From a virus (Duplodnaviria; Heunggongvirae; Uroviricota; Caudoviricetes; Demerecviridae), in the IMG/VR virus record IMGVR_UViG_2757320985_000001: 64,000 bases of DNA. One strand, given 5' to 3'. The translations under genes were made by a program, and so were the position numbers. Below are positions 5,885 to 60,172 of this stretch, piece by piece. The notes below the pieces were generated by a model. The model made no database searches. It worked only from the letters and a program-made list of their open reading frames with translations, and was not told the DNA's origin. Every line of letters begins with the position of its first letter. Position 1 is the stretch's first letter.

Positions 5885-5945
5885 CTCATCAATTTATAAA
5901 GTAATTATACAGAAAACTAAGCATTTTAGCAAATGAAGTTTTAAA
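5885..5945 (-). promoter_or_regulatory. early promoter cassette (-35 TTGCTT, 17 bp, TG-TATAAT, conserved leader + GAGAGG RBS)
   Basis: Member of the family repeated at least 27 times. Confidence 0.55.
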
Positions 5946-6034
5946 ATAAAAGGCCTAAGCCTAGGCCCGTAAAGAAAGAGATAAGAACTACTATACCTAT
6001 TGCTATAAATATCTCACGAGCCATGCCATCAAAA

Positions 6035-6625
6035 TCAAACATTGATATCTCCTCTCAATACCGCCGCCACATCTTCATCGATTTGGAGTATTTCACCAGT
6101 AGTGCAGTTAACCACTTTATCATAGCTTGTGAACTTGCCAGACACAATATCCTCTAGAGGAATAGGAGTCTTGCTCATCTCAAAAGAGACGTTGATATAA
6201 CGTGGGTCACGCACAGAATTGGTGTGCACATGTCCGTGAATGTTTAGCTTACCACGAAGTTCTGCTTCGTGCAATGGACAGTGTGACAGCCAAAACTTCT
6301 TGCCACCACCTGTTTGCTTACCTAGAGCCTGAATATCATCATAAACGTCTACAAGATCTTTAATACGCAGACCCTGACGTTCAGCATCGTGGTTGCCCAT
6401 GATTAATTGGTTAGGCACATTGTGGATAACCGACTTCAATTTAGCCAACCCTTCACGCCCCACGGCAATATCTCCTAGCAATACAAGTTTTGTACGCTTG
6501 CCAATGTGCTTGGACAAAGTATCTAGGATATATTCATCGTGCTCTTTCATGTTCTTAAACCACGGACGGAAGCGAAGAGTTCCAGGATGGTCTAGGTGCA
6601 AATCCGACCAGAATTTAACTTTCAT
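6035..6625 (-). CDS. calcineurin-like metallophosphoesterase
   Basis: D-x-H ... GDxxxR ... GNHD ... GHxH motifs (SDLHLDH, LGDIAVG, GNHD, HGHVH). Confidence 0.7.
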   Translation of the reverse strand: MKVKFWSDLHLDHPGTLRFRPWFKNMKEHDEYILDTLSKHIGKRTKLVLLGDIAVGREGLAKLKSVIHNVPNQLIMGNHDAERQGLRIKDLVDVYDDIQALGKQTGGGKKFWLSHCPLHEAELRGKLNIHGHVHTNSVRDPRYINVSFEMSKTPIPLEDIVSGKFTSYDKVVNCTTGEILQIDEDVAAVLRGDINV

Positions 6626-6831
6626 TACTTATTCCTTACACAAGTTGAGGTAATAGTATAACTATCGTAGAATATACCTTTTGTGAGTCCAATTTGGATG
6701 CTGGAATTATCCAGCTCACCTCCAGCTACGTCACACAAGTGTCTAGTATCTTCTGCGGTGAATCTCATACTATTATCATAAGGATCACATCCAGCTAGTA
6801 TTAGTACTGATACTAGTAGTAATCTCTTCAT
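6625..6831 (-). CDS. small lipoprotein, 68 aa
   Basis: Signal peptide with lipobox (LILAGC). Confidence 0.5.
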   Translation of the reverse strand: MKRLLLVSVLILAGCDPYDNSMRFTAEDTRHLCDVAGGELDNSSIQIGLTKGIFYDSYTITSTCVRNK

Positions 6832-7199
6832 TACAGAACTTCCTCCGCATATTTATTCCAACCCTGACAATAACTACTAATACCACGAAGTTTGAATATT
6901 TCATCATAAACCTCATGGTGCTCTTTCGCTTCTTGGTAGCCTTTGTCAACCTCTTCCTGTCGTGCTTGTTCAAATTCAACACGATTCTCTAGCATCTTCC
7001 AGACTTCTTCGTACTCTGGCCAATCATGCTCTACCACGACGGTTTTGAGATCTTCTTTACCACGTTGTGCTCGACTATACCATAGTTTGGACAAGATATG
7101 TTCCAAAGTGGTAAAGTTACTCTGAGTGATATGCCCTAATTCTAGGGCTTTCTCAATATCAGACAGCTTTATAACTACATAACGTTCTTCACGTTCCAT
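6831..7199 (-). CDS. hypothetical acidic protein, 122 aa
   Basis: ORF track. Confidence 0.45.
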   Translation of the reverse strand: MEREERYVVIKLSDIEKALELGHITQSNFTTLEHILSKLWYSRAQRGKEDLKTVVVEHDWPEYEEVWKMLENRVEFEQARQEEVDKGYQEAKEHHEVYDEIFKLRGISSYCQGWNKYAEEVL

Positions 7200-8077
7200 T
7201 ATAGAATCCTCTGTACACCACAGCTATCATCTTTGTCAGTGGTAAATGTCATAATCTTACCAGCTTCATCCTTAACTTGCGCAACCGTCAACTGCCCGTT
7301 GAAAACACCGCCAGTATCGAGATAAACACGGTTCTTGTACAGAATTGGGTAAGGAACACCAGTGTGACCATGGAATACGAAATCTACACTTTCAACTTCT
7401 GGCACTTCCACAGTCAGTTCATCTTTAAATCCTGCATAACGCTGGAAATAGGGGTGCTCTGCACCTTGCTTAGACAGATGAAAACCAATTTCCTGAATTA
7501 CATCACGATCCCATAGATATGGCTCAATGTAATAACTAGGATGATCATTAGGATCATTTTCACTTGCAGCGATATGATCAATAATATCGTCCCAATTAGG
7601 TGTATGTACATCGAATCCCGCATCTTTATATTGGAATGGTATTCCACCATGAACAACACCGTATTTCTTGCCACGATGGAGTACAGTCATGAATACTGGC
7701 ATTTTAACTGCCATATCTTCTGCGATACCTTTAATTGTATCGGTATCCAGATCATTCATTGCCCACATTCCACCATTATACATCCAGTTGGCATAGTCAC
7801 CAGCAATCATAAACTGATCATGGTTGCCACGAACGCTACGGAAGCGTGGGTTATATAAGAATTTGGCTAGAACCTGTAAGTTCTGCGGGCCACGGTCAAT
7901 TAGGTCGCCAACACAGACAACATAATCACGCTTCTCTTTATACCCTGCTAGTTTAAGAGCATCTTCCAGCATATCATTACAGCCATGAATATCTCCTACG
8001 AAGAACAGGTTAACATCATCTGGTACTACTAACATTTCATGCAGGTTAAATTCTTTTTTCATTATCGAGTCATCCAA
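7199..8077 (-). CDS. Ser/Thr protein phosphatase (PPP-family metallophosphatase)
   Basis: GDIHGC, GDLIDRG, GNHD and HGG motifs. A T5-type phage Ser/Thr phosphatase is known. Confidence 0.8.
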   Translation of the reverse strand: MDDSIMKKEFNLHEMLVVPDDVNLFFVGDIHGCNDMLEDALKLAGYKEKRDYVVCVGDLIDRGPQNLQVLAKFLYNPRFRSVRGNHDQFMIAGDYANWMYNGGMWAMNDLDTDTIKGIAEDMAVKMPVFMTVLHRGKKYGVVHGGIPFQYKDAGFDVHTPNWDDIIDHIAASENDPNDHPSYYIEPYLWDRDVIQEIGFHLSKQGAEHPYFQRYAGFKDELTVEVPEVESVDFVFHGHTGVPYPILYKNRVYLDTGGVFNGQLTVAQVKDEAGKIMTFTTDKDDSCGVQRIL

Positions 8078-8442: not shown

Positions 8443-8504
8443 TGTGATACTCCTCTCATCAATTTATACATATATTATATCAAAATTTTTAGCAGAAAGC
8501 AAAT

Positions 8505-8535
8505 AATAAAAAAGCCTAGTCAGCTAAGACTAGGC
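8505..8535 (-). terminator. rho-independent terminator
   Basis: GCCTAGTC..GACTAGGC hairpin plus U-run on the minus strand. Confidence 0.55.
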
Positions 8536-9237: not shown

Positions 9238-9312
9238 TTGTGAAACTCCTCTGATTCAATTTATACAAATATTATATAAAAATTTCAGCGGAAAGTCAAC
9301 TACTTTTTTATA

Positions 9313-13780: not shown

Positions 13781-13856
13781 AAATTATCCTTTTGCCTCAA
13801 TCTATAAACATATTATACAATACTTGTGGCATCTGAGCAACTGAAATTTTATTACA

Positions 13857-15904: not shown

Positions 15905-15980
15905 TTCAAAGCCCTCTCATCAATTTATATAAATATTATATCAAAAGGAGAGGGTTTTAGCAAATGAATTATTTATGAAA

Positions 15981-18254: not shown

Positions 18255-18310
18255 TTTCCCTCTCATTAATTTATATAAATATTATAACAAGAAATAAGAG
18301 AGAAGGCAAA
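18255..18310 (-). promoter_or_regulatory. early promoter cassette
   Basis: Family member immediately upstream of 17957-18250. Confidence 0.55.
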
Positions 18311-18324
18311 TGAATTTTTAAATT

Positions 18325-18399
18325 TGGTGCTCCCACCAGGAATCGAACCCGGTTCAGATGCTTACAAGGCAACTGCATCGCCAGCAATGCTTTAGGAGC
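18325..18399 (-). tRNA. tRNA-Thr (UGU)
   Basis: Acceptor GCTCCTA/TGGGAGC (one GU pair), T-arm CCGGG-TTCGATT-CCTGG, loop CTTGTAA. Confidence 0.55.
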
Positions 18400-18566
18400 A
18401 ATAAACCCGTTATTTCAACGGGATTTCTTTTTCAAATATAGGGGACTTATCAGACATTACTGTCATAGCCAACTGCTGTAGAAATTCGAATGAGAGTTTT
18501 AAACGTTCTTCTCCTAACTCAACCTCAACGCACTTCATTCGTTTATCTACTTTTAGCTTTAGATTA

Positions 18567-18788
18567 TCAGCCATCTTCGGATTCTCTTTGCTCAGCTATT
18601 GCTAGCCAGTCTGGTAAAAGAAACTTCGTACGAAATTCTTCATATGTTTCTTCTGGATGAAAGCTATAGCCTTGCTTTTCATCATTTAATAAAACCGAAC
18701 CGTCTTCCTGTTCATAAGCTCGGTATGTTTCACCAATAATTAAAACTCGTCTATTAGGATTTTTATTACGAAACTCAAAAACGTCCAT
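18567..18788 (-). CDS. hypothetical protein, 73 aa
   Basis: ORF track. Lies between tRNA genes. Confidence 0.45.
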   Translation of the reverse strand: MDVFEFRNKNPNRRVLIIGETYRAYEQEDGSVLLNDEKQGYSFHPEETYEEFRTKFLLPDWLAIAEQRESEDG

Positions 18789-18803
18789 AACGTTTCCTTA
18801 AAT

Positions 18804-18878
18804 TGGTGCGGGATACGAGAGTCGAACTCGTGTCTACTGGTTGGAAGCCAGTTATTCTAGCCACTGAACTAATCACGC
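18804..18878 (-). tRNA. tRNA-Gly (UCC)
   Basis: T-arm ACGAG-TTCGACT-CTCGT. Anticodon stem ACTGG/CCAGT with loop CTTCCAA. Confidence 0.55.
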
Positions 18879-18885
18879 ATTCGTT

Positions 18886-18961
18886 TGGCTGGAGAAGGAG
18901 GAATCGAACCTACCATTAACGGAGTCAAAGGCCGTTGTGCTAACCGTTACACTACTCTCCA
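18886..18961 (-). tRNA. tRNA-Gln (UUG)
   Basis: Acceptor TGGAGAG/TTCTCCA, discriminator G, loop CTTTGAC. Confidence 0.55.
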
Positions 18962-18967
18962 ATTGTT

Positions 18968-19043
18968 TGGCTGGGATGCCACGGATCGAACGTGGAACCT
19001 TCGGAGTCAGAGGCCGACGATCTGCCAATTGATCTACATCCCA
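18968..19043 (-). tRNA. tRNA-Gln (CUG)
   Basis: Acceptor TGGGATG/CATCCCA, discriminator G, T-arm CCACG-TTCGATC-CGTGG, loop CTCTGAC. Confidence 0.55.
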
Positions 19044-19050
19044 ATAATTT

Positions 19051-19251
19051 TTATTCTACAGGAACCGTGGCAATTGGATCTGGTTCTTCTAGACGTTTAC
19101 CATTATGATCAACACGAATAATACCACAACCTTCACAGATTACAACAGCACCATAGCCTTCTTTAACTTCGGCTTCTGTAATCAGACCAGAAAGATCACC
19201 AGTATCTTTGCCCCACATATCGATAGAGCATTCTTTGCAGAAATCAGCCAT
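19051..19251 (-). CDS. Zn-ribbon small protein, 66 aa
   Basis: CKEC ... CEGC paired cysteines. Confidence 0.45.
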   Translation of the reverse strand: MADFCKECSIDMWGKDTGDLSGLITEAEVKEGYGAVVICEGCGIIRVDHNGKRLEEPDPIATVPVE

Positions 19252-19275
19252 ATTTTAGTTCCTGTATAAGTTAAT

Positions 19276-19350
19276 TGGTGCATCCTCAGGGAATCGAACC
19301 CCGATCGTAAAGTTCGTAGCTTTACATTCTTTCCGTTGAAATAAGGACGC
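19276..19350 (-). tRNA. tRNA-Arg (ACG)
   Basis: Acceptor GCGTCCT/AGGATGC, T-arm CGGGG-TTCGATT-CCCTG, anticodon stem TAAAG/CTTTA with loop CTACGAA. Confidence 0.5.
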
Positions 19351-19356
19351 AATATT

Positions 19357-19433
19357 TGGGGTGGCTAGTGGAATTCGAATCCACATAGGCCTGATTCACA
19401 ATCAGGATCATTAACCAATTATGATATAGCCAC
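19357..19433 (-). tRNA. tRNA-His (GUG)
   Basis: Perfect acceptor GTGGCTA/TAGCCAC with discriminator C. T-arm GTGGA-TTCGAAT-TCCAC, loop TTGTGAA. Confidence 0.6.
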
Positions 19434-19744
19434 AATTGAAAACTCGCAGGGTTAGCGAAACCATCCTCAAATAGCATTTTCTAGAATACTAATCAAGTTA
19501 TCTCCTATTGCACGAAGCTCAAGACGAGTACGAATTTTCAATTGTGGTGGCTCTCCGAAACTCTTCCCACTTACAACTAGTTGATTACTCCTAGATTGTC
19601 GCCCAGGAAATTCTCTAGAAAGGAGCACCGTTACTCTTTGAGCCATTGATGATGGGATGGTCTCTCATCCCCACTAACTACTTAATCCTTACGATTCGTC
19701 GGTTAGCACGAGCAGCGACCCTTCATATATAATTTATAGTGCTC

Positions 19745-19900
19745 AGAAGGTCATTAGAAGCACTTATCAAGAAGCAGAAGGACTCGAACCTTCAAGAGAT
19801 AGACCATTTATCTCAGCCTCGTTTTCGGGTATCTTATGAGGAGTGGATGTTCCCCTTACGCCCTTTAGGAAGCCCCGTCTACCGATTCCGGCATACTTCA
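19745..19900 (-). pseudogene. tRNA-like remnant (intact T-arm GAAGG-TTCGAGT-CCTTC, identical to the tRNA-Pro T-arm; no pairing acceptor 5' strand)
   Basis: T-arm seen at 19780-19796. Upstream RNA contains a CTCATAA-like loop but no acceptor partner for TGCTTCT. Confidence 0.3.
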
Positions 19901-19904
19901 AGAA

Positions 19905-20111
19905 TTATTTAAAACTTGTAACCTTCGGGAACCTTATCCTTAACACCAATATACTCAGCTTGGATGTAGTATGTTGCACATGATCTTTAGGTAGATCTTT
20001 ATTTACATCATTAACTTCCATCAAGGCTTCGGCCTCGGTGTCAAATGGACGATACCAGCTTTCACCACCCCAGCCACGTTCGCTTTCGGTATACTTAACA
20101 ATGTGTTTCAT
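19905..20111 (-). CDS. hypothetical protein (internal start MKHIVKY chosen)
   Basis: The ORF-track ORF 19905-20162 would overlap the tRNA at 20130-20219. The ATG at 20111 has an AAGGA RBS. Confidence 0.45.
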   Translation of the reverse strand: MKHIVKYTESERGWGGESWYRPFDTEAEALMEVNDVNKDLPKDHVQHTTSKLSILVLRIRFPKVTSFK

Positions 20112-20129
20112 AAGGTTTTCCTTATTAGT

Positions 20130-20219
20130 TGGAGGAAGGTAATGGAGTCGAACCATCACCATATCGCTACAGCGGGCAGGTTTTCAAGACCTGTTACATA
20201 CCACTATGTCCTACCTTCC
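20130..20219 (-). tRNA. tRNA-Ser (UGA), class II
   Basis: 90 nt. Acceptor GGAAGGT/ACCTTCC. Anticodon stem CAGGT/ACCTG with loop CTTGAAA. Long variable arm. Confidence 0.6.
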
Positions 20220-20226
20220 AGTTGTT

Positions 20227-20318
20227 TGGCGGAAGAAGAGAGATTCGAACTCTCAAGCCTGCTTTAACAAGTCAGCCACTTTCCAAGCGGTTTTCGTCAC
20301 CTATCGATTTGCTCTTCC
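20227..20318 (-). tRNA. tRNA-Ser (GGA), class II
   Basis: 92 nt. Acceptor GGAAGAG/TTCTTCC, T-arm GAGAG-TTCGAAT-CTCTC, loop TTGGAAA. Long variable arm. Confidence 0.5.
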
Positions 20319-20492
20319 GTAGATCTCAGGATTAAATCATAAATTTCATTAGCGGATACTGGAAGTATGAGATTATACATCTTTTGGTCATACCTCTGAC
20401 CATACTCTATAAACACATACTCTTTAGTTAATGTATTAACAGCTAACCAGATATCAGTTATAGGAGTTTTCATCATGAGTTAATTCAATGTT

Positions 20493-20573
20493 TGGTAGGG
20501 ATGGAGGGACTCGAACCCACACCCGAAGACTAGAACCTAAATCTAGCGCGTCTGCCAATTTCGCCACATCCCC
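20493..20573 (-). tRNA. tRNA with anticodon UAG (Leu-type anticodon), 81 nt with a 9-nt variable region
   Basis: Acceptor GGGGATG/CATCCCT. Anticodon stem CTAGA/TCTAG with loop TTTAGGT. Confidence 0.5.
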
Positions 20574-20580
20574 ATTTTAT

Positions 20581-20799
20581 TTAGTTAGAAATAAATAGTA
20601 ACCCTGCAACAACGGAACCTATACCACTGAATACCATTATCAGCATAGCTTCTAAGCTGATAAAGCGGACGGTATATGGCGCGCCCCAAGAATAATCAGT
20701 AAAGAAAGTTTTCTTTTCTTTAGCTAAATCTTTAATAGTTCTAAAGTAGATAGCTAGTGCTAAAGCTGCAAGAACTACAGAGGCTGCTAAGAATACCAT
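20581..20799 (-). CDS. small membrane protein, 72 aa
   Basis: Two hydrophobic helices. Confidence 0.5.
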   Translation of the reverse strand: MVFLAASVVLAALALAIYFRTIKDLAKEKKTFFTDYSWGAPYTVRFISLEAMLIMVFSGIGSVVAGLLFISN

Positions 20800-20818
20800 A
20801 TTATTTCCTTAATTTGTT

Positions 20819-20894
20819 TGGTGGAGTCACTCAGAATTGAACTGAGTTCCACTGCTTGCAAGGCAGTAAGTTTAACCAAATAACCTATGACCCC
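20819..20894 (-). tRNA. tRNA-Ala (UGC)
   Basis: Acceptor GGGGTCA/TGACTCC carries the G3:U70 Ala identity pair. Anticodon stem ACTGC/GCAGT with loop CTTGCAA. Confidence 0.6.
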
Positions 20895-20899
20895 GAATT

Positions 20900-20978
20900 T
20901 GGTGGAGAATAAGAGATTCGAACTCTTCTGATATCCTCGGTGCAAGCGAGGTGTCCACTCCAAGCAGACCCATTCCCC
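20900..20978 (-). tRNA. tRNA, 79 nt, anticodon loop CTTGCAC (UGC), also with G3:U70
   Basis: Acceptor GGGGAAT/ATTCTCC, T-arm AAGAG-TTCGAAT-CTCTT, anticodon stem CCTCG/CGAGG. Looks like a second Ala-type tRNA. D-arm unclear. Confidence 0.4.
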
Positions 20979-21184
20979 AAAATCTTTAAGTTTACTAAGG
21001 CTATTAGCTCGGTGTGCGTATTACCCTCAGACATTAGCCAGTAGAGGATAACCGCTCTTCACAAACCCGATACACTATTCAGTTGCCGCTGAATCTAGTG
21101 GACTAGTCTAGAACTTCTCCCGAGTCGTAGGGATCGTGCTTTTTGGCAGCCAGTCCTGGGTCGAGCTAATACCTTAGTGAACTT

Positions 21185-21245
21185 TGATGAGGATTTCTCC
21201 TCATCAATTTATATAAATATTATAACAAGAAATTAAGCATCAAGC
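21185..21245 (-). promoter_or_regulatory. early promoter cassette driving a non-coding leader and a tRNA sub-operon
   Basis: Family member. No ORF downstream, only non-coding RNA and the tRNAs at 20819-20978. Confidence 0.5.
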
Positions 21246-21599
21246 AAGTACATTTTTAGCGATTTCTTGTATTTCCTTAACGTCACTAACGAAAAGGTAA
21301 TCAGAGCTTCCAGAGTGCATACTCTGCATAACCACACCATCCTCTGGTGCATCTTCTTTCAGTGTGATACCTAACCAGAACTCGGCAAAACTAGGTGTTA
21401 CCTCACCTTGACTTGCCTTGAATACATCGGCTTCTGTAATCTCTTGACCAGTGGAGAGTCCCATGTATGGTACGTTCAGATCAATATCTTTGTAGAATTC
21501 AGCTAGATCTTGTTCGAAGTCCCAACCTTTAGAGATAGCGAACTCCATTGTTACATGACCGAAATAGCCTTGAACCTTGCTTGATAATTGCATTTGCAA
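21240..21599 (-). CDS. hypothetical protein, 119 aa
   Basis: ORF track. Confidence 0.5.
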   Translation of the reverse strand: MQMQLSSKVQGYFGHVTMEFAISKGWDFEQDLAEFYKDIDLNVPYMGLSTGQEITEADVFKASQGEVTPSFAEFWLGITLKEDAPEDGVVMQSMHSGSSDYLFVSDVKEIQEIAKNVLA

Positions 21600-21618
21600 T
21601 TCCTTATTTTGAGTTAAT

Positions 21619-21692
21619 TGGTACTCGGTGATAGAATCGAACTATCGCAACCGCCGTGTAAAGACGGGGTTCTCCCATTAAACTAACCGAGC
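21619..21692 (-). tRNA. tRNA-Val (UAC)
   Basis: Acceptor GCTCGGT/ACCGAGT, T-arm GATAG-TTCGATT-CTATC, loop TTTACAC. Confidence 0.55.
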
Positions 21693-21825
21693 AAAAGACG
21701 TCCTATAATATAGGCTTCAACTACAAATTCACAGAAACCTGCTAAAAACATACCTATTGTAAAATCGGCAGAGAATACATAGGAATCTTTTATTTTCTGC
21801 TTCATTAAGTAAAACCAGATAGTCA

Positions 21826-22143
21826 TTAAAATCTCTCCATTCTAAAGCCAATGAAGTAAGGTGCATTACATGGAACATGCTTAAGATCTTTAAGAGTAAT
21901 TTTACGTCCTAAGCGTCGTTCCATACAAGTGAAACATAGAACAATATCTTTGGGCTGCTCTTTTCTTATCTGATCCCAGACCCAATCTTCAACCATACAC
22001 ATTTCATGGTATTGTTCACAGTCTCGACAATAATGACACTGATGTTCTGGTACTTTTTGATTTTTAATACACAGTTCAGTAAAGCGTTTTCCGGCTCTGC
22101 CAGACATTTCTGATATTGTTTCTAGAACTTTGTTAATATTCAT
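21826..22143 (-). CDS. Cys-rich hypothetical protein, 105 aa
   Basis: HQCHYCRDCEQYHEMC ... CFTC motifs (Zn-binding-like). Confidence 0.5.
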   Translation of the reverse strand: MNINKVLETISEMSGRAGKRFTELCIKNQKVPEHQCHYCRDCEQYHEMCMVEDWVWDQIRKEQPKDIVLCFTCMERRLGRKITLKDLKHVPCNAPYFIGFRMERF

Positions 22144-22160
22144 AACAAATTCCTTTAAAT

Positions 22161-22239
22161 TGGTAGACCGCCTGGGACTCGAACCCAGAACCTTCCGGTT
22201 AAAAGCCGGGTGCTGCTAAACCAATTGAGCTAGCGATCT
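22161..22239 (-). tRNA. tRNA-Lys (UUU)
   Basis: T-arm CTGGG-TTCGAGT-CCCAG. Anticodon loop CTTTTAA, identical to enterobacterial tRNA-Lys. Confidence 0.55.
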
Positions 22240-22427
22240 ATTTAATACATGTATACTTCTTTAATAGAGTAAACTTTTAAGTAAGGATGATTAATACCAA
22301 ATTCCGCCATCACTTCGTTTTCATCTTTACCGTAATGGGCTAGTGGATACTTCTTACGATCTTTGCTAGATCGCAGGTCACTTACTTTTAAACGAAATAA
22401 TTTCATTTCGAAATCCTTCTATTAAAT

Positions 22428-22504
22428 TGGAAGCGGGTGCAGGAATCGAACCTACCTCTTTCTAGCTTATGAGACTAGCGATCTCTGCCAGAGATCTAAC
22501 CCGC
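22428..22504 (-). tRNA. tRNA anticodon CAU (Met; 1:72 mismatch, possibly initiator-like)
   Basis: T-arm GTAGG-TTCGATT-CCTGC. Anticodon stem CTAGT/GCTAG with loop CTCATAA. Acceptor GCGGGT/ACCCGC. Confidence 0.45.
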
Positions 22505-22511
22505 AATTGTT

Positions 22512-22588
22512 TGGTCTCCAATGAAGGACTCGAACCTTCAACCCCACCGCCCCAAACGGTGTACTCTAGCCAATTGAGCTAATCGGAG
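22512..22588 (-). tRNA. tRNA-Pro (UGG)
   Basis: Acceptor CTCCGAT/ATTGGAG, T-arm GAAGG-TTCGAGT-CCTTC, anticodon stem CACCG/CGGTG with loop TTTGGGG. Confidence 0.55.
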
Positions 22589-23119
22589 AATATTATCTTT
22601 TTAACCATAGTAAGGATAGACCTAACATGGTGAACCCAGTACCCAGCCCAATACTTTTCTCTATGAAATTGAAGGTATCAGTATTGACTGCTGTAATTAG
22701 TATAGGTATAGACCATACTACCATAAATACTTGAGCTATCTTATATTTCATTTTGCTTTCCTTCTCAACACTTTATAAGATATATTATACAGAGAATTAA
22801 GCGAAATAGCAAATGAGTTTTTAATAAATTTACTTATTGCGTAGGCCACCTCACGCTTCAAACGCTCTGCTGACAAAGAAGTTTGCGAGACTTCTCTTAA
22901 ATGCCAGAATAGACCCGCCGATCTATCGGAACCTACTCAATAAGTAAACTTTCGTTTACTTACACTCCTGCGTTTCCATTGGGCCTCCAAAGAGGTATCC
23001 ACGACCTGTTATTCAGAAGATTTTACCACGTTGAACGGCCGGAACTCCGTGGCTTGTTTACTATCACCTTACGGACGCATAAGTTATTACACGAATGCGC
23101 AGGCTTGGTTTGATAGATT

Positions 23120-23195
23120 TGGTGCGGTCGGAGGGACTCGAACCCTCAACTTCTGGTTGGCAACCAAAAATTATACCTTTTAACTACGAACGCAT
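23120..23195 (-). tRNA. tRNA-Gly (GCC)
   Basis: T-arm GAGGG-TTCGAGT-CCCTC. Acceptor GCGTTCG/CGACCGC (one mismatch). Loop TTGCCAA. Confidence 0.45.
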
Positions 23196-23199
23196 AATA

Positions 23200-23331
23200 A
23201 GTCAATCTAGGCAGGACTTGAACCTGCTATCACTTGTGCGGATTTACGAGAACCATTCTTTCACTCGAATCGAACGAGCTTCTACCCTCGGCAAGCTGGT
23301 GTCCCCTCTCCACCACGCTAGAATGTTTAAT
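23200..23331 (-). pseudogene. tRNA-like remnant(s) with two T-arm-like hairpins (CTCG-TTCGATT-CGAG and GCAGG-TTCAAGT-CCTGC) and no complete cloverleaf
   Basis: Manual fold failed to find acceptor partners. Confidence 0.3.
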
Positions 23332-23409
23332 TGGTACACCTGCTGAGATTCAAACTCAGGATCTTCCGATTAAGAGTCGGTTGCTTTAAATCAACTAAGC
23401 TACAGATGC
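23332..23409 (-). tRNA. tRNA-Lys (CUU)
   Basis: Acceptor GCATCTG/CAGGTGT, T-arm CTGAG-TTTGAAT-CTCAG, loop CTCTTAA. Confidence 0.5.
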
Positions 23410-23949
23410 ATTTATATCTTTATAGGACTTACCAGTCAGTCTTGTATAGCGTTTTCGCAGACCATTATCTGACATGCCCAATTCTCTAGAAGCTCTAGAC
23501 CATGAGTAATTTTTAACCCAGTACTCTATTTGTTCTACAGTAATTTCTTGTGGATTTTGACAGTGCTGTTTGCAGTAACTAGCTCTTTTAGCTATTTCTT
23601 TGTTGCAAATAGGACAGAAATTTTTATCTGAACTTAATCCACGTTCTTCTATAGTTTTGAGAATATGATCAGCTTTACTTCGTACAATCAGATTTTCAAG
23701 AGAGAAATTTAGTTTGTTTGTATCATCATGATCTACTTCTAAGTCAGAACTCAAAGATGGTAGATCTTTGTATACTCTCGCTAATACTCTGTGTAATAGA
23801 AGATGTTTTGATTTTCCATTATGTTGAACAGTAAAGAAAGGATACCCAGAAGTATTAATCTGTATTGAAAGTATACGATTAACTTTAGTACTAAATACTT
23901 CCCCAGTCTCACTTATTAAGTATTCTGGATATTCGGGTATTTCTTTCAT
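23395..23949 (-). CDS. HNH-family homing endonuclease (HNH_3 core with C-terminal HTH)
   Basis: GYPFFTVQHNGKSKHLLLHRVLARVY core. C-terminal WVKNYSWSRASRELGMSDNGLRKRY helix-turn-helix. Embedded in the tRNA array. Confidence 0.7.
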   Translation of the reverse strand: MKEIPEYPEYLISETGEVFSTKVNRILSIQINTSGYPFFTVQHNGKSKHLLLHRVLARVYKDLPSLSSDLEVDHDDTNKLNFSLENLIVRSKADHILKTIEERGLSSDKNFCPICNKEIAKRASYCKQHCQNPQEITVEQIEYWVKNYSWSRASRELGMSDNGLRKRYTRLTGKSYKDINASVA

Positions 23950-23966
23950 TACTGTTCCTTATAATT

Positions 23967-43040: not shown

Positions 43041-43147
43041 TGATTTTCCTCTTTCTCACTATTTCAGGAATATTATAGCAAATCTGGTAGCGATTAGCAA
43101 GTAAAATTTCAAAGAAAAAAGGAGACCCGAAGATCTCCTTGTTTTTA

Positions 43148-46607: not shown

Positions 46608-46654
46608 TCCTATAGTGTACTTCGCTAACAGAGGATCAACAAAAAGATCTTGTT

Positions 46655-46715
46655 TATCAACTTACAAATATATTATACCAATATATACGGGAGAAAGCAA
46701 CTACAATTTTAAATA
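46655..46715 (-). promoter_or_regulatory. early promoter cassette (TTGCTT-17-GGTATAAT) for phoH
   Basis: Member of the repeated promoter family. Confidence 0.6.
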
Positions 46716-46892
46716 AGCCTATGATATTGCATTTAAATAAAAAATTTGCTTGCTTTTATTGGGAGATGTATGGTACTAGATAATCATTTTATATCGCGTA
46801 CACGGGTGCGTGATTATACTATTTTTAGTAGAGGTTGGCAAATAAAATTTTTTGACTCAGATCATGTTACAGAACTTTATAGTAAAATATTG

Positions 46893-46921
46893 TTGACATC
46901 CGCCTTCGAATGAGTTATAAT
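46893..46921 (+). promoter_or_regulatory. sigma70-consensus promoter TTGACA-17-TATAAT upstream of nrdD
   Basis: TTGACAtccgccttcgaatgagtTATAAT seen directly. Confidence 0.65.
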
Positions 46922-48830: not shown

Positions 48831-48868
48831 CAGCCAGGTTGCTAGTCGACCTGGCTTTTATTTTATTT
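48831..48868 (+). terminator. rho-independent terminator after nrdD
   Basis: AGCCAGGTTGCTAGTCGACCTGGCT followed by a T-run. Confidence 0.6.
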
Positions 48869-48923
48869 GCTTTCGAGCTAAAACTTATGTATAATTGATT
48901 TATAAATTTGAGAGGAGAAAGCT

Positions 48924-52149: not shown

Positions 52150-52215
52150 GCACCTTCGGAAAAATTTTACTTGCAGGATGCTCAAAATCTTGATATAATA
52201 TTTATATTGAATTGA
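52150..52215 (+). promoter_or_regulatory. early promoter cassette variant (TTGCAG-17-TATAAT plus conserved leader) with no ORF nearby
   Basis: Seen directly. The next start codon is at about 52767. Confidence 0.5.
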
Positions 52216-52766
52216 GAGACATTAGTAAAAATTGATTTTGCTAATTTTTCTTGTTTACAATCCGCAATACGGAACAGTTAGGCTGCCCCATTAAGGGTTG
52301 TTTTAACTATTACTAGTGTTTATACTGCATTAGTTAATTATCAATTAAGTGATCTGCGTACCCTGAATTCGGAAAGGTAAATCCAAACCGTGCATATTTA
52401 GCTCGTTATATAGGCAGAGCTTTATATGGGGGTGCGAACGAAAAGAGCAGCGAATGGTGACACGTCCAGTAGCCACCTACCAATAGGATAGTGAGGGCAA
52501 TCAGAATCGGCTTAGCGGCCAATGACCTAGGTTCTGATCTGGATAAGAGTTAAGAGAGCGCAGCACTGAGGTATGATAACTTATTCATACTGCTTGATGA
52601 TGATTAATGTTTGTGTAAATGGTAGTAATAGTTGTTCTATTCTTTTGAATAGTCCTAAAGAAAGATATCCGAATAACCAACATAGGAGTATTGTTGTGTT
52701 CTCAATCCTACAAGGTCACGCAGGATTTCCAGAGATAAAGCCACTGGCATCTGGAAAGAGATCAAA

Positions 52767-55484
52767 GTGGAAGACTACACCTTTGCAAAGCGATTCTCTA
52801 AAGAGCATCCAGAAGGTAAACCAGCTTCCATGCCCTTCAAATTTGATGTACTTGAAGAACTTGACCCGCAAAACCTTGCTGAAATGTTACCTATCATGCG
52901 TCGTCTTACCAAAGACCCGCATATTGTAGCTATTCGTGGTAAATGTTTAGCTCCAAAAGATAATGTGCGTCGTACCAGAGGAAACTTTAATGTATCCAAT
53001 CCTAGTCATATTATTGCTATGGACGTGGATGGTATTGTAGATACTGGTGGCTATGACAAGTTTAATCTTGTTGGCATGGCACGTCATATTATCAAGATGT
53101 TAAATAGTATTAGTGAGGATATGTTTCCTCTTGATGCAGGGTTTATTGCTCATGCATCATCTTCGGCTGGCTTAAAACCAGGTATCCGAATGCACTTAAT
53201 GCTAGAATCTAATGTCAAGGTAACGCAGGGACAGTTAAAGTTCTTATTTACATCTATCAATGACAGTAGTAAGCAAAAGTATGGTTTTGATATTGCTGAC
53301 TTAGCTTATTATTCTTCTGTTCAGCTTCACTATTTCGCAGATCCCTTATTTGATGATGGTATAGTCGATCCGTTTAAAGCGGAGAATAAACCACGTCTTG
53401 TGTATGTTAAGGGTTCGAAAGTGAATCTACCCAATAACCTAGTTGACTTTGAAACAACTAGAGGTGAGTTTAAAGAAGAATTCTACTCCTTACTTGACCA
53501 AATTAAAGGCAAGAAGGCTGCATCTGATAAAGTGGAAGAAACCATCAGCGAACTAGAAGAAGCTGAGGATGGAGTGTACCTGCGTATTATTCCAAAACTT
53601 TATCACAGAGCGTTAGAAGATGGTGTTGACTTTACGTGGTTAGAACGTGAGATTAAACCAGCTTTATCTGAGTATATTGCGACTAAAGATAATAGTCGCA
53701 ATATTCAAGATTACTTTAATAACGGTCGTAAGCAGGCTCTCAAAGCCTTTGTAAATAACTCCAAACGTGAGATTCCACCAAACTTAAAAGGTGTACCATT
53801 AAAACGTCTAGACACAGATTCTCCACCAGAAGTTCCATACCTGAAAATTAACATTGTACCACCAAAAGGACATTTAACATTTGTTAAGGCAAGTCTTGGT
53901 ACAGGTAAAACCACAGCAGTAACTAAGTGGCTAGATGCAGGTGTTCTTCCAGGAAACTTTATTGCAATCACGAATACTAGGGCACTTGTATCTTCAAACG
54001 CGAAGAAATTCGGTGCTGGTCAGTATGATAAGTCAGTTGATATGCTGAACTTCAAACGTGGTGCCATTGATCGTATGTCTTCAACTATTCACTCTATCCA
54101 TAAGTTCAAGAGCTTTGTGGGTCAGATTGATACGATCTTTATTGATGAATGTGACGCAGTAATGAATGATCTGTTATTCGCTCCGGTTGTTAAAAACCGT
54201 CGTGAATGTATACAGGTCCTTCGCGATATTCTTATTACTGCTAAAACGGTGATCTTATCTGATGGTGATATCAGTGCAGAAACGATTGAAGCCTATGGTT
54301 CTTTGATTGATTTTGATAAACCAGTTGCATTCTATAATCATCACCGTAAAATGCTGGCGAAAGCTCACGCTTATGAATTCCCTGACGAATCCAGTATTTG
54401 GGTTGCACTTCAAACATCTCTAGAGATGGGTGAGAAGTCAATCCTAGTATCTGACTGTGGACCGGATGAACTGAATGAAAAAGGAATGGCATTACGTCGT
54501 AATACTGGTGCGTTAGTTAAAGAAATTCACTCAAACTCTACGTCTGATGTAGATATCCGACGTATTCTGGATTATACAACTAATGAGCTAATTGATCAAC
54601 AGATTGATTGTTTGTTATGTAGTCCATCTGTAACGAGTGGTGTTGACTTTAACTATTTTGATAACGTATTCGTAATCACTAGAACCTCAAACCAAGCGCC
54701 AAACATGCGTTTCCAAGCAATCAGGCGCGACCGTGGTGCTCGGAACATTTATTATTTTATTGATAAATCTACGAGTGGATTTTCTGCGGGTTCCGAGCAA
54801 TATAATATTGATGAGGGTTGGGTTGAGTTAGCTCAGCAGCTGTATGCACGTCGTCGTGAACTGGAGTCCAGAAACTATACTAGTACTTTGCGTTATTATC
54901 TGCTTGATCAGGGTGCAACTATTGATATTTTCAGTGAAAGCTGGGGAACTATCGAAGGTGCAGGCAAAGAGTATACAGAAGAGCGAATCAAAGCTATTTT
55001 GCACTCAACTCCTGAATATTGCGCACCACGTCATGCAGATGCCTATGAAGCTAAATTGCTTCTGGTTCGCTATTATCACCTGGATTCTATTAAAGATGTA
55101 ACAGTGGAACACGTTGAACAATATATCAAAGATAAACCGAACGATAGAGCTGCATTTTTCCACAAGATGCACGATATGTTCTGGGAAGATATTAAGAAGT
55201 GTTCAAATGTAACAATCAAACCGTTTATCGAAGCTCTTAAGAATAAGAAGAAGGATTTCTTCCTTAAAACAGGTCAGAGTGCTAACCCAAAATATGCTCG
55301 TATGTACCTCGGCATGATGGGTATTGGTAAAGATCTGGATACGGAAAAGATTGTGGACTGGTACAGAACTTACTGTAAGATCGAATGTATGCCGATTCCA
55401 GTTAAGTTTATGACAGATGAAGAACGTCAGATGCATGAGGAAGCTCTTGCTGAATTGGGGGCTAGAAATGACAGCGAAGAATAA
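52767..55484 (+). CDS. putative replication protein: N-terminal primase-polymerase-like domain fused to a P-loop NTPase/helicase
   Basis: hIIAMDVDG (DxD-type), then Walker A SLGTGKTTAV and Walker B IFIDECDA. GTG start at 52767; an ATG near 52830 is possible. Confidence 0.5.
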   Translation: MEDYTFAKRFSKEHPEGKPASMPFKFDVLEELDPQNLAEMLPIMRRLTKDPHIVAIRGKCLAPKDNVRRTRGNFNVSNPSHIIAMDVDGIVDTGGYDKFNLVGMARHIIKMLNSISEDMFPLDAGFIAHASSSAGLKPGIRMHLMLESNVKVTQGQLKFLFTSINDSSKQKYGFDIADLAYYSSVQLHYFADPLFDDGIVDPFKAENKPRLVYVKGSKVNLPNNLVDFETTRGEFKEEFYSLLDQIKGKKAASDKVEETISELEEAEDGVYLRIIPKLYHRALEDGVDFTWLEREIKPALSEYIATKDNSRNIQDYFNNGRKQALKAFVNNSKREIPPNLKGVPLKRLDTDSPPEVPYLKINIVPPKGHLTFVKASLGTGKTTAVTKWLDAGVLPGNFIAITNTRALVSSNAKKFGAGQYDKSVDMLNFKRGAIDRMSSTIHSIHKFKSFVGQIDTIFIDECDAVMNDLLFAPVVKNRRECIQVLRDILITAKTVILSDGDISAETIEAYGSLIDFDKPVAFYNHHRKMLAKAHAYEFPDESSIWVALQTSLEMGEKSILVSDCGPDELNEKGMALRRNTGALVKEIHSNSTSDVDIRRILDYTTNELIDQQIDCLLCSPSVTSGVDFNYFDNVFVITRTSNQAPNMRFQAIRRDRGARNIYYFIDKSTSGFSAGSEQYNIDEGWVELAQQLYARRRELESRNYTSTLRYYLLDQGATIDIFSESWGTIEGAGKEYTEERIKAILHSTPEYCAPRHADAYEAKLLLVRYYHLDSIKDVTVEHVEQYIKDKPNDRAAFFHKMHDMFWEDIKKCSNVTIKPFIEALKNKKKDFFLKTGQSANPKYARMYLGMMGIGKDLDTEKIVDWYRTYCKIECMPIPVKFMTDEERQMHEEALAELGARNDSEE

Positions 55485-55701
55485 AAAGTGGGAAACAAGG
55501 AAGTTTCCCGTAAAAGAACGCAAAACTTATGTTTACGATACCGCGGAGAAACTATGTAGGGTTGTACCACCTCGTCTCGCTGGCATCCCTAACGTCTCCA
55601 TATGGTTACTTAAACAACGGAAGACTCGTGTGTCTCTTCGCATTGGCTTTGAGTTAGATAAAGTCTATGCTGAACTTGCTTCTTTGCTCAAAGAATCATA
55701 A
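55470..55701 (+). CDS. hypothetical basic protein, 77 aa
   Basis: GGGGG RBS before the ATG at 55470 inside ORF 55417-55701. Confidence 0.4.
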
Positions 55702-55769
55702 AAATTTATTTGCTTTCAGGAAAAATTTTCTGTATAATAGATTCATAAATTTGAGAGAGGAGTTTAAAT
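55696..55769 (+). promoter_or_regulatory. T5 PN25-type early promoter (TTGCTT-17-TGTATAAT, leader ATAAATTTGAGAGAGGAG)
   Basis: AAAAATTTATTTGCTTTCAGGAAAAATTTTCTGTATAATAGATTCATAAATTTGAGAGAGGAGTT matches the published T5 PN25 sequence as I recall it. Confidence 0.8.
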
Positions 55770-56730: not shown

Positions 56731-56837
56731 CAGTTACTGAAAAATTTCAGTTGCTTAATCCTGTAATTCTTGATATAATATTCTCATAGTTTGAAAGAAC
56801 TATTCTGTTTAATTCTTAATTAAGGAAATCGAAAAAT

Positions 56838-57631: not shown

Positions 57632-57940
57632 ATGAGCGATCAGGTAAATCAAAACTATGAAGGACACGTTGACGACCAGTCCATCATGCTTTGGGAGAAG
57701 GAGGGAGAACAAGTAAGACTAACCGTATCTGAATTTCGTGGGAATCTATACATGGGAATTCGTTACTGGCTCCAAGATATTACTGGAGAGTGGTTTCCAA
57801 CGAAATCCGGCTTCTCTTTTCCTTATACCCTAGAAACTACATCACAGCTATTTTACGCTTTTACGCAAATCCTCAGTGAATCCGAGGTCTTGCATGAAGT
57901 ACAGAAACGAGCTGAAGAACTCAAAGCCAAGAATGCCTAG
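57632..57940 (+). CDS. hypothetical protein, 102 aa
   Basis: Followed by a terminator at about 57918-57952. Confidence 0.5.
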   Translation: MSDQVNQNYEGHVDDQSIMLWEKEGEQVRLTVSEFRGNLYMGIRYWLQDITGEWFPTKSGFSFPYTLETTSQLFYAFTQILSESEVLHEVQKRAEELKAKNA

Positions 57941-58007
57941 TTCTTGGCTTTTTCTTTATAAATGTACTTGCTTTCGACTCAGTTTTCATATATAATATTT
58001 ATATAAA

Positions 58008-58226
58008 TTGATGAGAGGATCAATTATGGCAATGACAATAACACTTCCAAAGATTCAAGCAAAACTTAATTTACTCTCCGTAGCAAGAATCAATTACCAA
58101 GATAGTATCGGCACTCCAAACCAGAAAGCGTACAAAGATGCGTGGTTGAAAGAAGCTGCTGATTTAGCTGGTATGGCTGCTCAGTATAACAAAGAACTCA
58201 AAATGGAAATCGCAGACGATGAATAA
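58008..58226 (+). CDS. hypothetical protein, 72 aa
   Basis: Promoter cassette at about 57960-58010. Overlaps the ligA start. Confidence 0.45.
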   Translation: MMRGSIMAMTITLPKIQAKLNLLSVARINYQDSIGTPNQKAYKDAWLKEAADLAGMAAQYNKELKMEIADDE

Positions 58227-59190
58227 TGTAAAAGACTTTATCAAACGTTGTCAAGAAGCGTACTACCAGGGAATGAGTCTTATTTCCGATGAAGAATATG
58301 ATCGTCTGATTAAAAGATTCCCGCTAGAGGAAGAAATCGGACCGAAAGGTGATATCCCTCATTTGTATCGTATGTATTCTTTGCAGAAAGTCTATTACGG
58401 TCGTGGTGATAAAGCTCCGTTCAATCCACTTGGTCAGGTTGAAACTGATAAGTTAGATGGTTGTGCGATTTCCCTATTATATATTAATGGTGAGTTTGTT
58501 CAAGCATTAACTCGTGGTAACGGTATTCTAGGGAATGATGTAACGCATAATGTTAAAATGCTGAACATCCCTAAAACTATTTCCCAAAAAGTTCCAACTC
58601 AAATCACTGGTGAAGTTCTCATTACTAAAGAAGTAGAGAACAAACGTAACTACGCTTCGGGTGCTATTAACCTGAAAGACAGCGATGATTTCATGCAACG
58701 TATTGGTGAAGGTGGTTTAATCTTCGTTGCATATGGTATCCAGTGTTCAGCGGAAACAGTCGGTATTACAGAAGCCTATTTAAAAGATATGCTTTGGCTA
58801 GAGAATGAGAACTTCTTGACAGTTGTTAATGTTCGTTCCTTCTTTAAGTGGATTCCGACGGATGGTAAAGTTGTTCGTATTAATGATAACAACAAATTCT
58901 TCCGTGAAGGTTGGACTAATAAATTTCCTCGTGGTGCATTTGCTATTAAAGAGGATGAAGAAGGCGAAATTACCACACTTGTTAAAGTTGAATGGCAAGT
59001 AGGGGCTTCTGGTAAAGTAACTCCAGTTGGTTATTTCGAACCGGTGATTATTGATGATGCCACAATCGTTAAAGCAACTCTTAATAACGTTGATTATATT
59101 AACGCTCTCGATTTAGAGATCGGTTGCCAGATTCGAGTGATTCGTGCTGGTGGTGTAATCCCTTGTATAGTAGAGCGAGTATACGACTAA
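58219..59190 (+). CDS. ligA: NAD-dependent DNA ligase, subunit A (adenylation + OB domains)
   Basis: LigA Ia/adenylation domain with the K-x-D-G lysine motif (KLDGCA) and OB fold. Stops before the Zn finger. Confidence 0.8.
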   Translation: MNNVKDFIKRCQEAYYQGMSLISDEEYDRLIKRFPLEEEIGPKGDIPHLYRMYSLQKVYYGRGDKAPFNPLGQVETDKLDGCAISLLYINGEFVQALTRGNGILGNDVTHNVKMLNIPKTISQKVPTQITGEVLITKEVENKRNYASGAINLKDSDDFMQRIGEGGLIFVAYGIQCSAETVGITEAYLKDMLWLENENFLTVVNVRSFFKWIPTDGKVVRINDNNKFFREGWTNKFPRGAFAIKEDEEGEITTLVKVEWQVGASGKVTPVGYFEPVIIDDATIVKATLNNVDYINALDLEIGCQIRVIRAGGVIPCIVERVYD

Positions 59191-59240
59191 TTCGTAACCC
59201 TTTGCTACCCGTTTACCATGTCGGAATTATAAAGTGGTTA

Positions 59241-59269
59241 TTGACATTTTCGCCGCTTAGGTATATACT
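59241..59269 (+). promoter_or_regulatory. sigma70-consensus promoter TTGACA-17-TATACT inside the ligase split
   Basis: TTGACAttttcgccgcttaggtaTATACT. The -35 context is shared with the 29673 promoter. Confidence 0.5.
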
Positions 59270-59389
59270 ATTATCATTCAGTTGAGGGATAGAAAGTTAT
59301 GGCGAGGGTAAGCAAAGTTAGTTAAAATTGTAGTTGCTAAATGCTTAAATACTTGCTATAATATTTATATAAATTGATAAGGAAGAAAT

Positions 59390-60172
59390 TTGATGAAAAT
59401 CGAAATTCCAACACAATGCCCCTCTTGTGGTTCTAAGCTAGATCTTGTCAACGGGCAATTATTCTGTAGGAATAAGTCCAACTGTCCAGCGCAATCAAGT
59501 AAGTTAATCGAGAACTTCTGCACAAAAATGAAGTTAAAGGGCTTTGGCCCGAAAACTATTGAGAAGCTGGAGCTGACTAAGATCTCAGAACTGTTTTACC
59601 TGACCGAAGAAGATTTGGTCGGAGCTGTGGGTAGCAAGGTTGCCGCTAAATTGATTAGCGAGTTAAATACTAAGGTTCGCGGAGACACTGACTTTGGTTC
59701 AGTTCTCGGTTCTTTAGGAATTACTCTTATTGGAGAGGTTGCAGCAAAGAAACTGTCCCAAAATTGCACTAGCTTCCACGATGTGAAGGCTGACGGCAAG
59801 GCTGGAGAAAATTACAAAACCTGGCTAAATTCCCCACAAGGCAAGGATGTTATTGAATTACCATGGAAATTCTCAACAGGTATTCGAGGTGCTAAAGCAG
59901 ATATAATCATTACAGATGATTTAGTTGCCCAGCCAAATGGAATCACGGTCTGTATTACCGGATCTTTGCAAGATTTTGCAAATAGAACGGATGCAACAAA
60001 CTATTTAGAAAGTCTAGGATATACGGTTAAGAAGTCCGTTACCAAAGACGTCAAATACCTAATCTGTGAGGATGAATCAAAACGTTCTTCCTCATCTTAT
60101 AAGAAAGCCGAAACGAATGGGATAGAAATCCTGTCGATTAAAGAACTATTGGAGAAAAATAATAATGTCTAA
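59390..60172 (+). CDS. ligB: NAD-dependent DNA ligase, subunit B (Zn finger, HhH, BRCT)
   Basis: CPSCGS...C Zn finger, helix-hairpin-helix region and C-terminal BRCT-like domain. Continues the LigA architecture. Confidence 0.75.
   Translation: MMKIEIPTQCPSCGSKLDLVNGQLFCRNKSNCPAQSSKLIENFCTKMKLKGFGPKTIEKLELTKISELFYLTEEDLVGAVGSKVAAKLISELNTKVRGDTDFGSVLGSLGITLIGEVAAKKLSQNCTSFHDVKADGKAGENYKTWLNSPQGKDVIELPWKFSTGIRGAKADIIITDDLVAQPNGITVCITGSLQDFANRTDATNYLESLGYTVKKSVTKDVKYLICEDESKRSSSSYKKAETNGIEILSIKELLEKNNNV

Follow-up and report, generated by a model that had tools for sequence, protein, structure and literature searches.

What is the sequence of some 60 bp that recurs ahead of genes along a T5-like phage genome, and which of its parts is selection holding in place? 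The stretch analysed here (the window, 64,000 nucleotides of IMG/VR record IMGVR_UViG_2757320985_000001) is a 100% match to Salmonella phage 100268_sal2 (KU927497.2 / NC_031902.1, record positions 11824–75823), a T5-like phage of the genus Epseptimavirus in the Demerecviridae. It comprises an early region with small open reading frames (ORFs), transfer RNA (tRNA) genes, nucleotide-metabolism genes on the minus strand and replication genes on the plus strand; the gene strands diverge at about 46.8 kb, where the sign of the GC skew also flips. The phage record annotates no promoter features. A preliminary description, made from the sequence alone, had proposed a promoter-leader cassette reiterated at least 27 times between positions 5885 and 59390, and had not identified the motif as the T5 promoter class. 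We find that the copies almost certainly belong to the T5 early sigma-70 promoters, an already known class, carried here by a T5-like Salmonella phage whose promoters lack annotation. The observation is confirmed and slightly enlarged.

The motif was present at all 27 of the listed positions. A weight matrix of 65 columns, built from these 27 sites aligned on TATAAT, recovered 31 sites in the window with scores of 25.9–70.4 bits, against a maximum of 2.3 bits in 20 Markov-1 randomised windows, and the exact 9-mer TGTATAATA occurred 11 times where 0.9 occurrences were expected from dinucleotide-preserving shuffles. These scores rule out chance or low-complexity AT-rich sequence as the origin of the motif. 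Copies are named below by the window position at which their TATAAT hexamer (-10) starts. Four strong copies, 5401 and 25642 on the minus strand and 56774 and 63370 on the plus strand, had neither been listed nor served as seeds of the matrix (scores in Table 1). The element itself is real, and its limits have to be corrected from the span first proposed to 5373–63398. All copies are co-directional with the local genes, lying on the minus strand up to 46.7 kb and on the plus strand beyond. A generic sigma-70 scan of the window for TTGACA/TATAAT yielded no enrichment, such a scan being blind to the family because its -35, TTGCTT, matches just three of the six bases of TTGACA.

The record of phage T5 (AY543070) carries 75-bp 'promoter' features throughout the early region, many under historical names (P-N25, P-N26, P-K28a/b, P-H207, P-D/E33, P-F30, P10a–P16-17, P31A/B); Gentz and Bujard reportedly described the T5 early promoters in 1985. 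Applied to positions 9–76 kb of T5, the matrix derived from the window alone matched 33 of the 39 annotated promoters, with two weak matches outside them. The recovered promoters include P-N25, P-N26, P-K28a, P-H207, P-D/E33, P-F30, P11, P13a/b, P14a/b, P15a/b/c, P16-17 and P31A/B. The copies have the same architecture as the T5 early promoters P-N25, P-N26, P-K28a/b, P-H207 and P-D/E33 and are orthologous to them position by position, copy 55733 being nearly identical to P-N25. Unlike T5, the present phage belongs to Epseptimavirus and infects Salmonella, its copy 27692 has no T5 counterpart, and some downstream genes differ, for example nadR/pnuC here and T5.076 in T5. An ATATT discriminator is common to every T5 early promoter known, and the published alignment also marks the -10, the -35 and UP elements (PMC7472727).

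The 27 aligned sites are rich in information between about -47 and +16. Conservation covers AAAA at -45/-42, TTGCTT at -35/-30, TATAAT, a discriminator of the form A-T-(A/T)-T-n-T (consensus ATATTT), ATAAATTGA at +1/+9 and GAGAGG, and the 3' half of the spacer is A/T-rich. The copies therefore share more than a generic -10 and -35: as the preliminary description had stated, conservation extends into the transcribed leader and includes GAGAGG. TATAAT is found in 31 of 31 copies. The reported TTGCTT is borne out by both the site alignment and the matrix, with G at the third position in 26 and C at the fourth in 25 of the 27 seed sites, that is, TTGC. Two further statements hold in part. The spacer, described as exactly 17 bp, has this length in 29 of the 31 copies but measures 18 bp at 26013 and 63370, and the extended -10 is canonical (TGnTATAAT) in only 12 copies, with the TG shifted by one base in 13 and missing in 6. 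In the commonest form, CTG-TATAAT (13 copies), the TG directly abuts the hexamer, one base too close for an extended -10. The 12 canonical copies resemble extended -10 (TGn) promoters in this motif; unlike those promoters, the family has a strongly conserved -35 hexamer and hence is not -35-independent.

Upstream of the -35, each of the positions -45 to -42 is A in 23–25 of the 27 sites. This is the position of the proximal UP subsite, for which AAAAAARNR is the consensus used in comparison. The block resembles that of UP-element promoters such as rrnB P1 in being A-rich and lying just upstream of the -35; unlike in those promoters, no conserved distal subsite was seen among the 27 sites, with at most 0.3 bit per position upstream of about -48. 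The earlier comparison of the tract to an UP element agrees with the element labelled UP in the T5 literature (PMC7472727, Fig. S5 legend; PMC12464699). In three copies (8479, 48890 and 57991) the T-run of a terminator stands in for the A-tract.

Descent and class specificity of the copies

For 28 of 29 window copies, the best match in T5 was the syntenic counterpart, and mean identity between window and T5 copies was 0.86 for orthologs and 0.53 for paralogs. Because orthologs are far more alike than paralogs and the best matches are syntenic, the copies are an old, vertically inherited set kept similar by selection, neither recent duplicates nor a homogenised repeat; on these identities we ruled out concerted evolution and recent duplication. 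By segment, ortholog identity was 1.00 in the -10, 0.97 in the -35, 0.95 at +1/+9, 0.91 in the discriminator, 0.82 in the spacer and 0.74 at +18/+28. The same comparison showed that the T5 gene hegH (an HNH homing endonuclease gene of about 523 bp), which sits between the promoter -10 and the start codon of nrdB, is absent here (window 43065–43070), and that several further gaps are other single-gene HNH insertions in T5.

Alternatively, the copies could be a mobile or recombining regulatory cassette like the promoter-early stem-loop (PeSL) of T4-type phages, spread by duplication or gene conversion and acting as crossover points for module swaps. Of 70 homology-block ends against T5, 13 fall within 60 nt of a copy, where about 4 would be expected. 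Around P15a, agreement between the two phages is close up to the ATG and is lost entirely beyond it: copy 29533 departs from its T5 counterpart by a pair of substitutions upstream and a single one in the leader (TCAAAT here, TCTAAT in T5), is otherwise the same to the ATG, and is followed by a different gene. The inserted pnuC/nadR-type module brings an extra copy, 27692, identical to its neighbour 29533 over a run of 39 nt, and terminator-like hairpins adjoin about 6 of the 31 copies, six copies abutting an upstream one. However, conserved promoter islands beside diverged genes would yield the same enrichment against T5; in the close relative EPS7 (95–98% identity) only 1–2 of 38 indel ends lie near a copy, against about 2.6 expected; and the vertical inheritance described above argues against homogenisation. 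For the block ends, conserved promoter islands flanked by replaced genes are the better explanation. The T5 comparison is suggestive of PeSL-like recombination, the EPS7 comparison does not support it, and we consider a mobile or recombining cassette very improbable.

The likeness to PeSL (PMC2839356, PMC4122927) lies in the many near-identical early sigma-70 promoters within a variable region of small ORFs, some of them beside terminator hairpins and some at gene-replacement borders. The two nevertheless differ: their sequences are unrelated, the stem-loop that is part of every composite PeSL unit adjoins only about 6 of the 31 copies here, indel ends in the EPS7 comparison show no concentration at the copies, and the copies evolve vertically. 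The pnuC/nadR-type module (27360–29568, minus strand) consists of ORF84, a pnuC-like nicotinamide mononucleotide transporter gene and a nadR-like adenylyltransferase gene in place of T5.076. Its T5 homology stops just past the ATG that follows the P15a-type leader, and it has its own promoter copy at 27692.

Outside the early region the motif is almost absent. Over the late genes of T5 and its terminal repeat with the pre-early genes (45.7 kb), the sole strong match was the promoter of the lytic-conversion lipoprotein gene (lpp), and the motif is absent from the T5 late promoters P-G25 and P-J5. The other 49 kb of 100268_sal2 contain strong matches at three sites, two of them orthologs of P31A/B within replication genes and one before a Cor/llp-like gene; all three precede early-type genes, and no strong match occurs in the structural block of about 28 kb or in the pre-early terminal repeat. 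The motif is specific to the early promoter class.

For comparison across the family, sites were picked by T[TA]G-N20-TATAAT alone, leaving the downstream bases unconstrained. Information at +1/+9 then amounted to 4.5 bits in the window, 5.1 in T5, 4.4 in Vibrio phage 234P1, 5.4 in Vibrio phage PG07, 2.6 in Pectobacterium phage My1 and 1.6 in Proteus phage PL1, and the A-tract and the TTGC -35 were kept in all of these genomes. The D2 proteins of 234P1 and PG07 are about 37% identical to that of the window. Judged from these genomes, the early-promoter signature, including its transcribed part, appears to be conserved across the Demerecviridae. This is a modest extension of known facts; we did not find such family-wide conservation stated in the literature.

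Confinement of the motif to early-class promoters in both T5 and 100268_sal2, and its retention across Demerecviridae infecting Escherichia, Salmonella and Vibrio, would also be expected if the discriminator and +1/+9 formed a class tag, a regulatory site and more than a determinant of strength or escape, through which a phage factor, with gpT5.026 and D5 as candidates, switches off or modulates early transcription. Early and late T5 promoters differ mainly in the discriminator, and gpT5.026, which binds RNA polymerase, weakens the contact of the polymerase with -5/+2 and lowers early transcripts in vivo (PMC7472727), while the T5 record AY543070 describes D5 as a DNA-binding protein involved in shut-off. 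Yet both are only putative binders of this sequence, and gpT5.026 has little effect in vitro (PMC7472727). N25, moreover, is very active in uninfected E. coli, where no phage factor is present, and the element is dispensable for positive factor action; a need of the early genes alone for very strong host-type promoters would equally give class specificity. We regard such a tag as unlikely. That it may extend throughout the Demerecviridae and be read by gpT5.026-bound RNA polymerase or by D5 to time early shut-off is, in our estimate, distinctly unlikely.

Constraint on the transcribed leader

The conserved leader had been attributed to selection on the structure of the 5' untranslated region or on translation initiation. 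The structural explanation was not upheld. Folded from +1 to +50 for each copy, the leaders were no more stable than shuffled sequences (median z -0.08), RNAalifold returned 0 consensus base pairs on 23 leaders, and a search of the window with Rfam matched tRNAs and no other RNA family. Small hairpins that expose the Shine-Dalgarno sequence in a loop (5909, 27692, 29533 and 57991) were dismissed, the stems of 5909, 29533 and 57991 being broken in T5.

Individual transcripts have features of their own. Copy 21224 is followed by no ORF (20980–21212, minus strand), and its leader contains a 10-bp hairpin, TTGATGAGGA / TCCTCATCAA, of -15.7 kcal/mol (z -4.45), in which Shine-Dalgarno-like bases are buried; the position is that of the T5 stable RNA 'RNA2H'. 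Between copy 33644 and tRNA-Arg, about 850 nt without an ORF (32780–33630, minus strand) occupy the position of T5 'RNAX', a stable RNA of unknown function in the T5 annotation. This stretch lacks annotation in the phage record, and Rfam gives a marginal tRNA-like match at 33310–33381 (29.3 bits). About 570 nt (52206–52767, plus strand) separate copy 52194 from the origin-binding protein gene and begin with a hairpin of -12.3 kcal/mol (z -4.1). This long leader is kept in T5, with the promoter at 59042 and the gene at 59545.

Eight copies have no nearby ORF. They precede tRNAs (27328, 25642), homologues of T5 stable RNAs (21224, 33644) or long leaders (46677, 52194, 56774, 63370). The match to consensus at +1/+9 was 0.72 in these eight and 0.80 in the others, while at +10/+17 it was 0.41 and 0.63, respectively. 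The first segment is thus kept and the second lost where no ORF follows, and therefore GAGAGG is the ribosome-binding site, whereas the constraint on ATAAATTGA needs no translation. At copy 27328, if the start is as at N25, the transcript would begin 8 nt before tRNA-Ser(gct), with the tRNA itself running from +9. Among the 23 copies with a nearby ORF, the start codon lies at +22 to +28 in 20, and GAGAGG or GAGG stands at a fixed +11 to +17. These data support the earlier view that the copies are promoters of the sigma-70 type followed by a short, fixed leader and a Shine-Dalgarno sequence.

Could the conserved transcribed part serve mainly translation? A leader without structure, rich in A/U and S1-friendly, with Shine-Dalgarno sequence and spacing fixed, would make translation of each early gene efficient from the moment of its transcription, and the polymerase would then have no part in the constraint. 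The fixed spacing of GAGAGG and start codon and the essentially unstructured leaders agree with this, and the decay of the Shine-Dalgarno segment in copies without an ORF places that segment under translational constraint. However, +1/+9 persists in the eight tRNA, stable-RNA and long-leader copies, including 27328; the discriminator is conserved although it is not transcribed; and the published N25 effects of the initial transcribed sequence occur in vitro, without ribosomes (PMC12464699, PMC5961368). A constraint from translation only accounts for the Shine-Dalgarno segment, not for +1/+9 or the discriminator, and as an explanation of the whole conserved part it is possible, if on the unlikely side. 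Selection for translation initiation, as first suggested, thus holds for +10/+17 and fails for +1/+9.

The +1/+9 segment, judged from its conservation among copies and orthologs, is under purifying selection. Such constraint fits the promoter-escape role published for the N25 initial transcribed sequence and not a role in translation. Replacing that sequence lowered productive RNA synthesis about 10-fold and slowed escape (PMC12464699). As cited in PMC5961368, Kammerer et al. (1986) saw the initial transcribed sequence alter strength >10-fold in vivo; a correlation of productive yield with purine content is cited there too. The leaders of the window are 72% purine over +1/+20. In the N25 ortholog (55733), with +1 taken as the A 7 nt after TATAAT, the first C lies at +30, in agreement with the 'C30' run-off product described for N25(-C) (PMC12464699).

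We propose that each copy would work as one compact expression unit read by the host sigma-70 RNA polymerase. The A-tract at -45/-42 would provide a proximal UP-element-like contact for the alpha subunit, and a deliberately non-consensus TTGCTT -35, combined with the 17-bp spacer and a perfect TATAAT, would allow fast polymerase binding. Next to it, past the AT-rich discriminator (ATATTT), transcription would start at the A 7 nt after the -10. The first nine or so transcribed bases (ATAAATTGA) would run into a purine-rich, C-poor tract, an initial transcribed sequence that may be tuned for rapid escape, and GAGAGG at +11/+16 would act as the ribosome-binding site of a short, unstructured leader of 21–27 nt where a protein gene follows. 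The roles given to the A-tract, the start site and the initial transcribed sequence come from the P-N25 literature or from reasoning on it. Likewise, early kinetics, an unmodified host polymerase and the start site of these copies are presumed from T5 N25, while the anatomy, class specificity, T5 orthology, selection on +1/+9 and absence of RNA structure come from the present analysis.

Several points count against this picture. Start sites and timing for 100268_sal2 are transferred from T5, and the escape function has been shown experimentally for N25 only, not for the whole class. The conservation of +1/+9 is weaker in Proteus phage PL1 and Pectobacterium phage My1. Finally, the exact string ATATT occurs in only 7 of the 31 discriminators, although all are AT-rich, the rest being variants such as ATTTAT and AGATTC.

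The 31 copies and their surroundings

Table 1. Early-promoter copies in the window. Coordinates are window positions; -10 is the start of the TATAAT hexamer; bits are matrix scores; 'new' marks copies absent from the preliminary description.
Span (strand)	-10	Downstream	T5 ortholog	Remarks	Bits
5373–5436 (-)	5401	ORF32, ATG at +27	16276, annotated promoter	new	58.3
5881–5944 (-)	5909	ORF33	P-F30	intrinsic terminator just upstream, 5968–5951	63.6
8451–8514 (-)	8479	ORF39 (TTG start)		T-run of upstream terminator 8538–8511 replaces A-tract	58.0
9248–9311 (-)	9276	ORF41		-35 TTGACT	51.0
13789–13852 (-)	13817	ORF49			47.7
15912–15975 (-)	15940	ORF55			61.7
18258–18321 (-)	18286	ORF61	annotated P11		65.4
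21196–21259 (-)	21224	no ORF	P13b (upstream of stable RNA 'RNA2H', tRNA-Ala)	10-bp leader hairpin	67.0
22761–22824 (-)	22789	ORF73	P13a		47.4
24837–24900 (-)	24865	ORF77	P14b		55.1
25614–25677 (-)	25642	tRNA-Tyr/Glu/Trp cluster	P14a	new	45.3
25985–26048 (-)	26013	ORF79	P15c	18-bp spacer	34.0
27300–27363 (-)	27328	drives tRNA-Ser(gct), 27308–27215	P15b	ATAAATT kept, no Shine-Dalgarno	61.3
27664–27727 (-)	27692	ORF84	none	39-nt identical run with 29533	62.8
29505–29568 (-)	29533	nicotinamide-nucleotide adenylyltransferase gene	P15a		70.4
33616–33679 (-)	33644	no ORF; ~850 nt untranslated (T5 'RNAX' region), then tRNA-Arg	P16-17		63.3
34298–34361 (-)	34326	ORF92	P-D/E33		68.9
35138–35201 (-)	35166	ORF94			66.1
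36462–36525 (-)	36490	ORF96, ATG at +35			64.9
38309–38372 (-)	38337	ORF100	P-H207		50.0
38660–38723 (-)	38688	ORF101		leader departs from family consensus (ATTGAAAGTGAGGAGGG)	48.4
40066–40129 (-)	40094	HslV-family peptidase gene			44.0
43049–43112 (-)	43077	nrdB		terminator upstream, 43140–43119	40.8
46649–46712 (-)	46677	~67-nt leader, then phoH-like gene			56.0
48855–48918 (+)	48890	ORF113		overlaps T-run of nrdD terminator 48832–48856	53.8
52159–52222 (+)	52194	~570-nt leader, then origin-binding protein gene		strong hairpin at leader start (z -4.13)	47.0
55698–55761 (+)	55733	D2	P-N25 (63086, annotated 'promoter P-N 25')		69.3
56739–56802 (+)	56774	52-nt leader, then D3	P-N26	new	48.2
57956–58019 (+)	57991	ORF129		terminator upstream, 57923–57951	60.2
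59322–59385 (+)	59357	DNA ligase subunit B	P-K28a		66.6
63335–63398 (+)	63370	DNA polymerase gene	71030, annotated promoter	weaker member, 18-bp spacer; new	25.9

The annotated start of ORF101 (38616, minus strand) is probably 13 codons too far downstream. At +22 of the promoter copy, an alternative ATG (38655) follows the ribosome-binding site GAGGAGGG and would give a product of 92 amino acids, equal in length to T5.090. ARAGORN predicts 29 tRNA genes in the window (minus-strand region 18325–27308), and the RefSeq record annotates 21. The eight without RefSeq annotation are Thr 18325, His 19357, Ser(gga) 20227, a second Ala 20900, Met 22428, Asp 23967, Trp 25252 and Ser(gct) 27215; six of these are confirmed by Rfam, which gives a weak additional match at 25174–25245.

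A second promoter-like kind, without the family leader, has its -10 at 49, 2326, 10901 and 46916 and combines a TTGAC-type -35 with a 17-bp spacer and TATAAT. The counterparts of the sites at 2326, 10901 and 46916 carry promoter annotation in T5. Two early sub-classes, Ea and Eb, are mentioned in PMC10644984. The interval 46649–46921 forms a divergent control region between a phoH-like gene (minus strand) and nrdD (plus strand), at the change of sign of the GC skew. It contains family copy 46677, a second site of the form TTGCCA-17-TATAAT (46841–46813) and a perfect-consensus TTGACA-17-TATAAT (46893–46921) without the family leader. At 29754–31496, a plus-strand island of two genes runs opposite to its surroundings with a G+C content of 0.48, against about 0.40. 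It terminates at a strong hairpin (31466–31496), in the same position as a T5 terminator annotated as bidirectional, and is the counterpart of T5.077–078, which have their own, different promoter (P12).

Bearing on early transcription in T5-like phages

As a discovery the finding carries little weight, the T5 record already annotating these promoters. The T5 early promoters were sequenced in the 1980s, and P-N25 underlies expression vectors in wide use and has served a long line of studies on promoter escape. What is gained is the placing of 31 promoters in a Salmonella phage whose record shows none, together with sets of copies with and without a downstream ORF that separate the transcriptional from the translational part of the leader. 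The mechanism by which T5 switches between promoter classes is unknown according to PMC7472727, and a family-wide, early-only signature bears on the unsolved question of how the T5 early genes are shut off. If the discriminator and +1/+9 did prove to be a class tag, they would offer a way into the early-to-late switch of T5, which is still unexplained.

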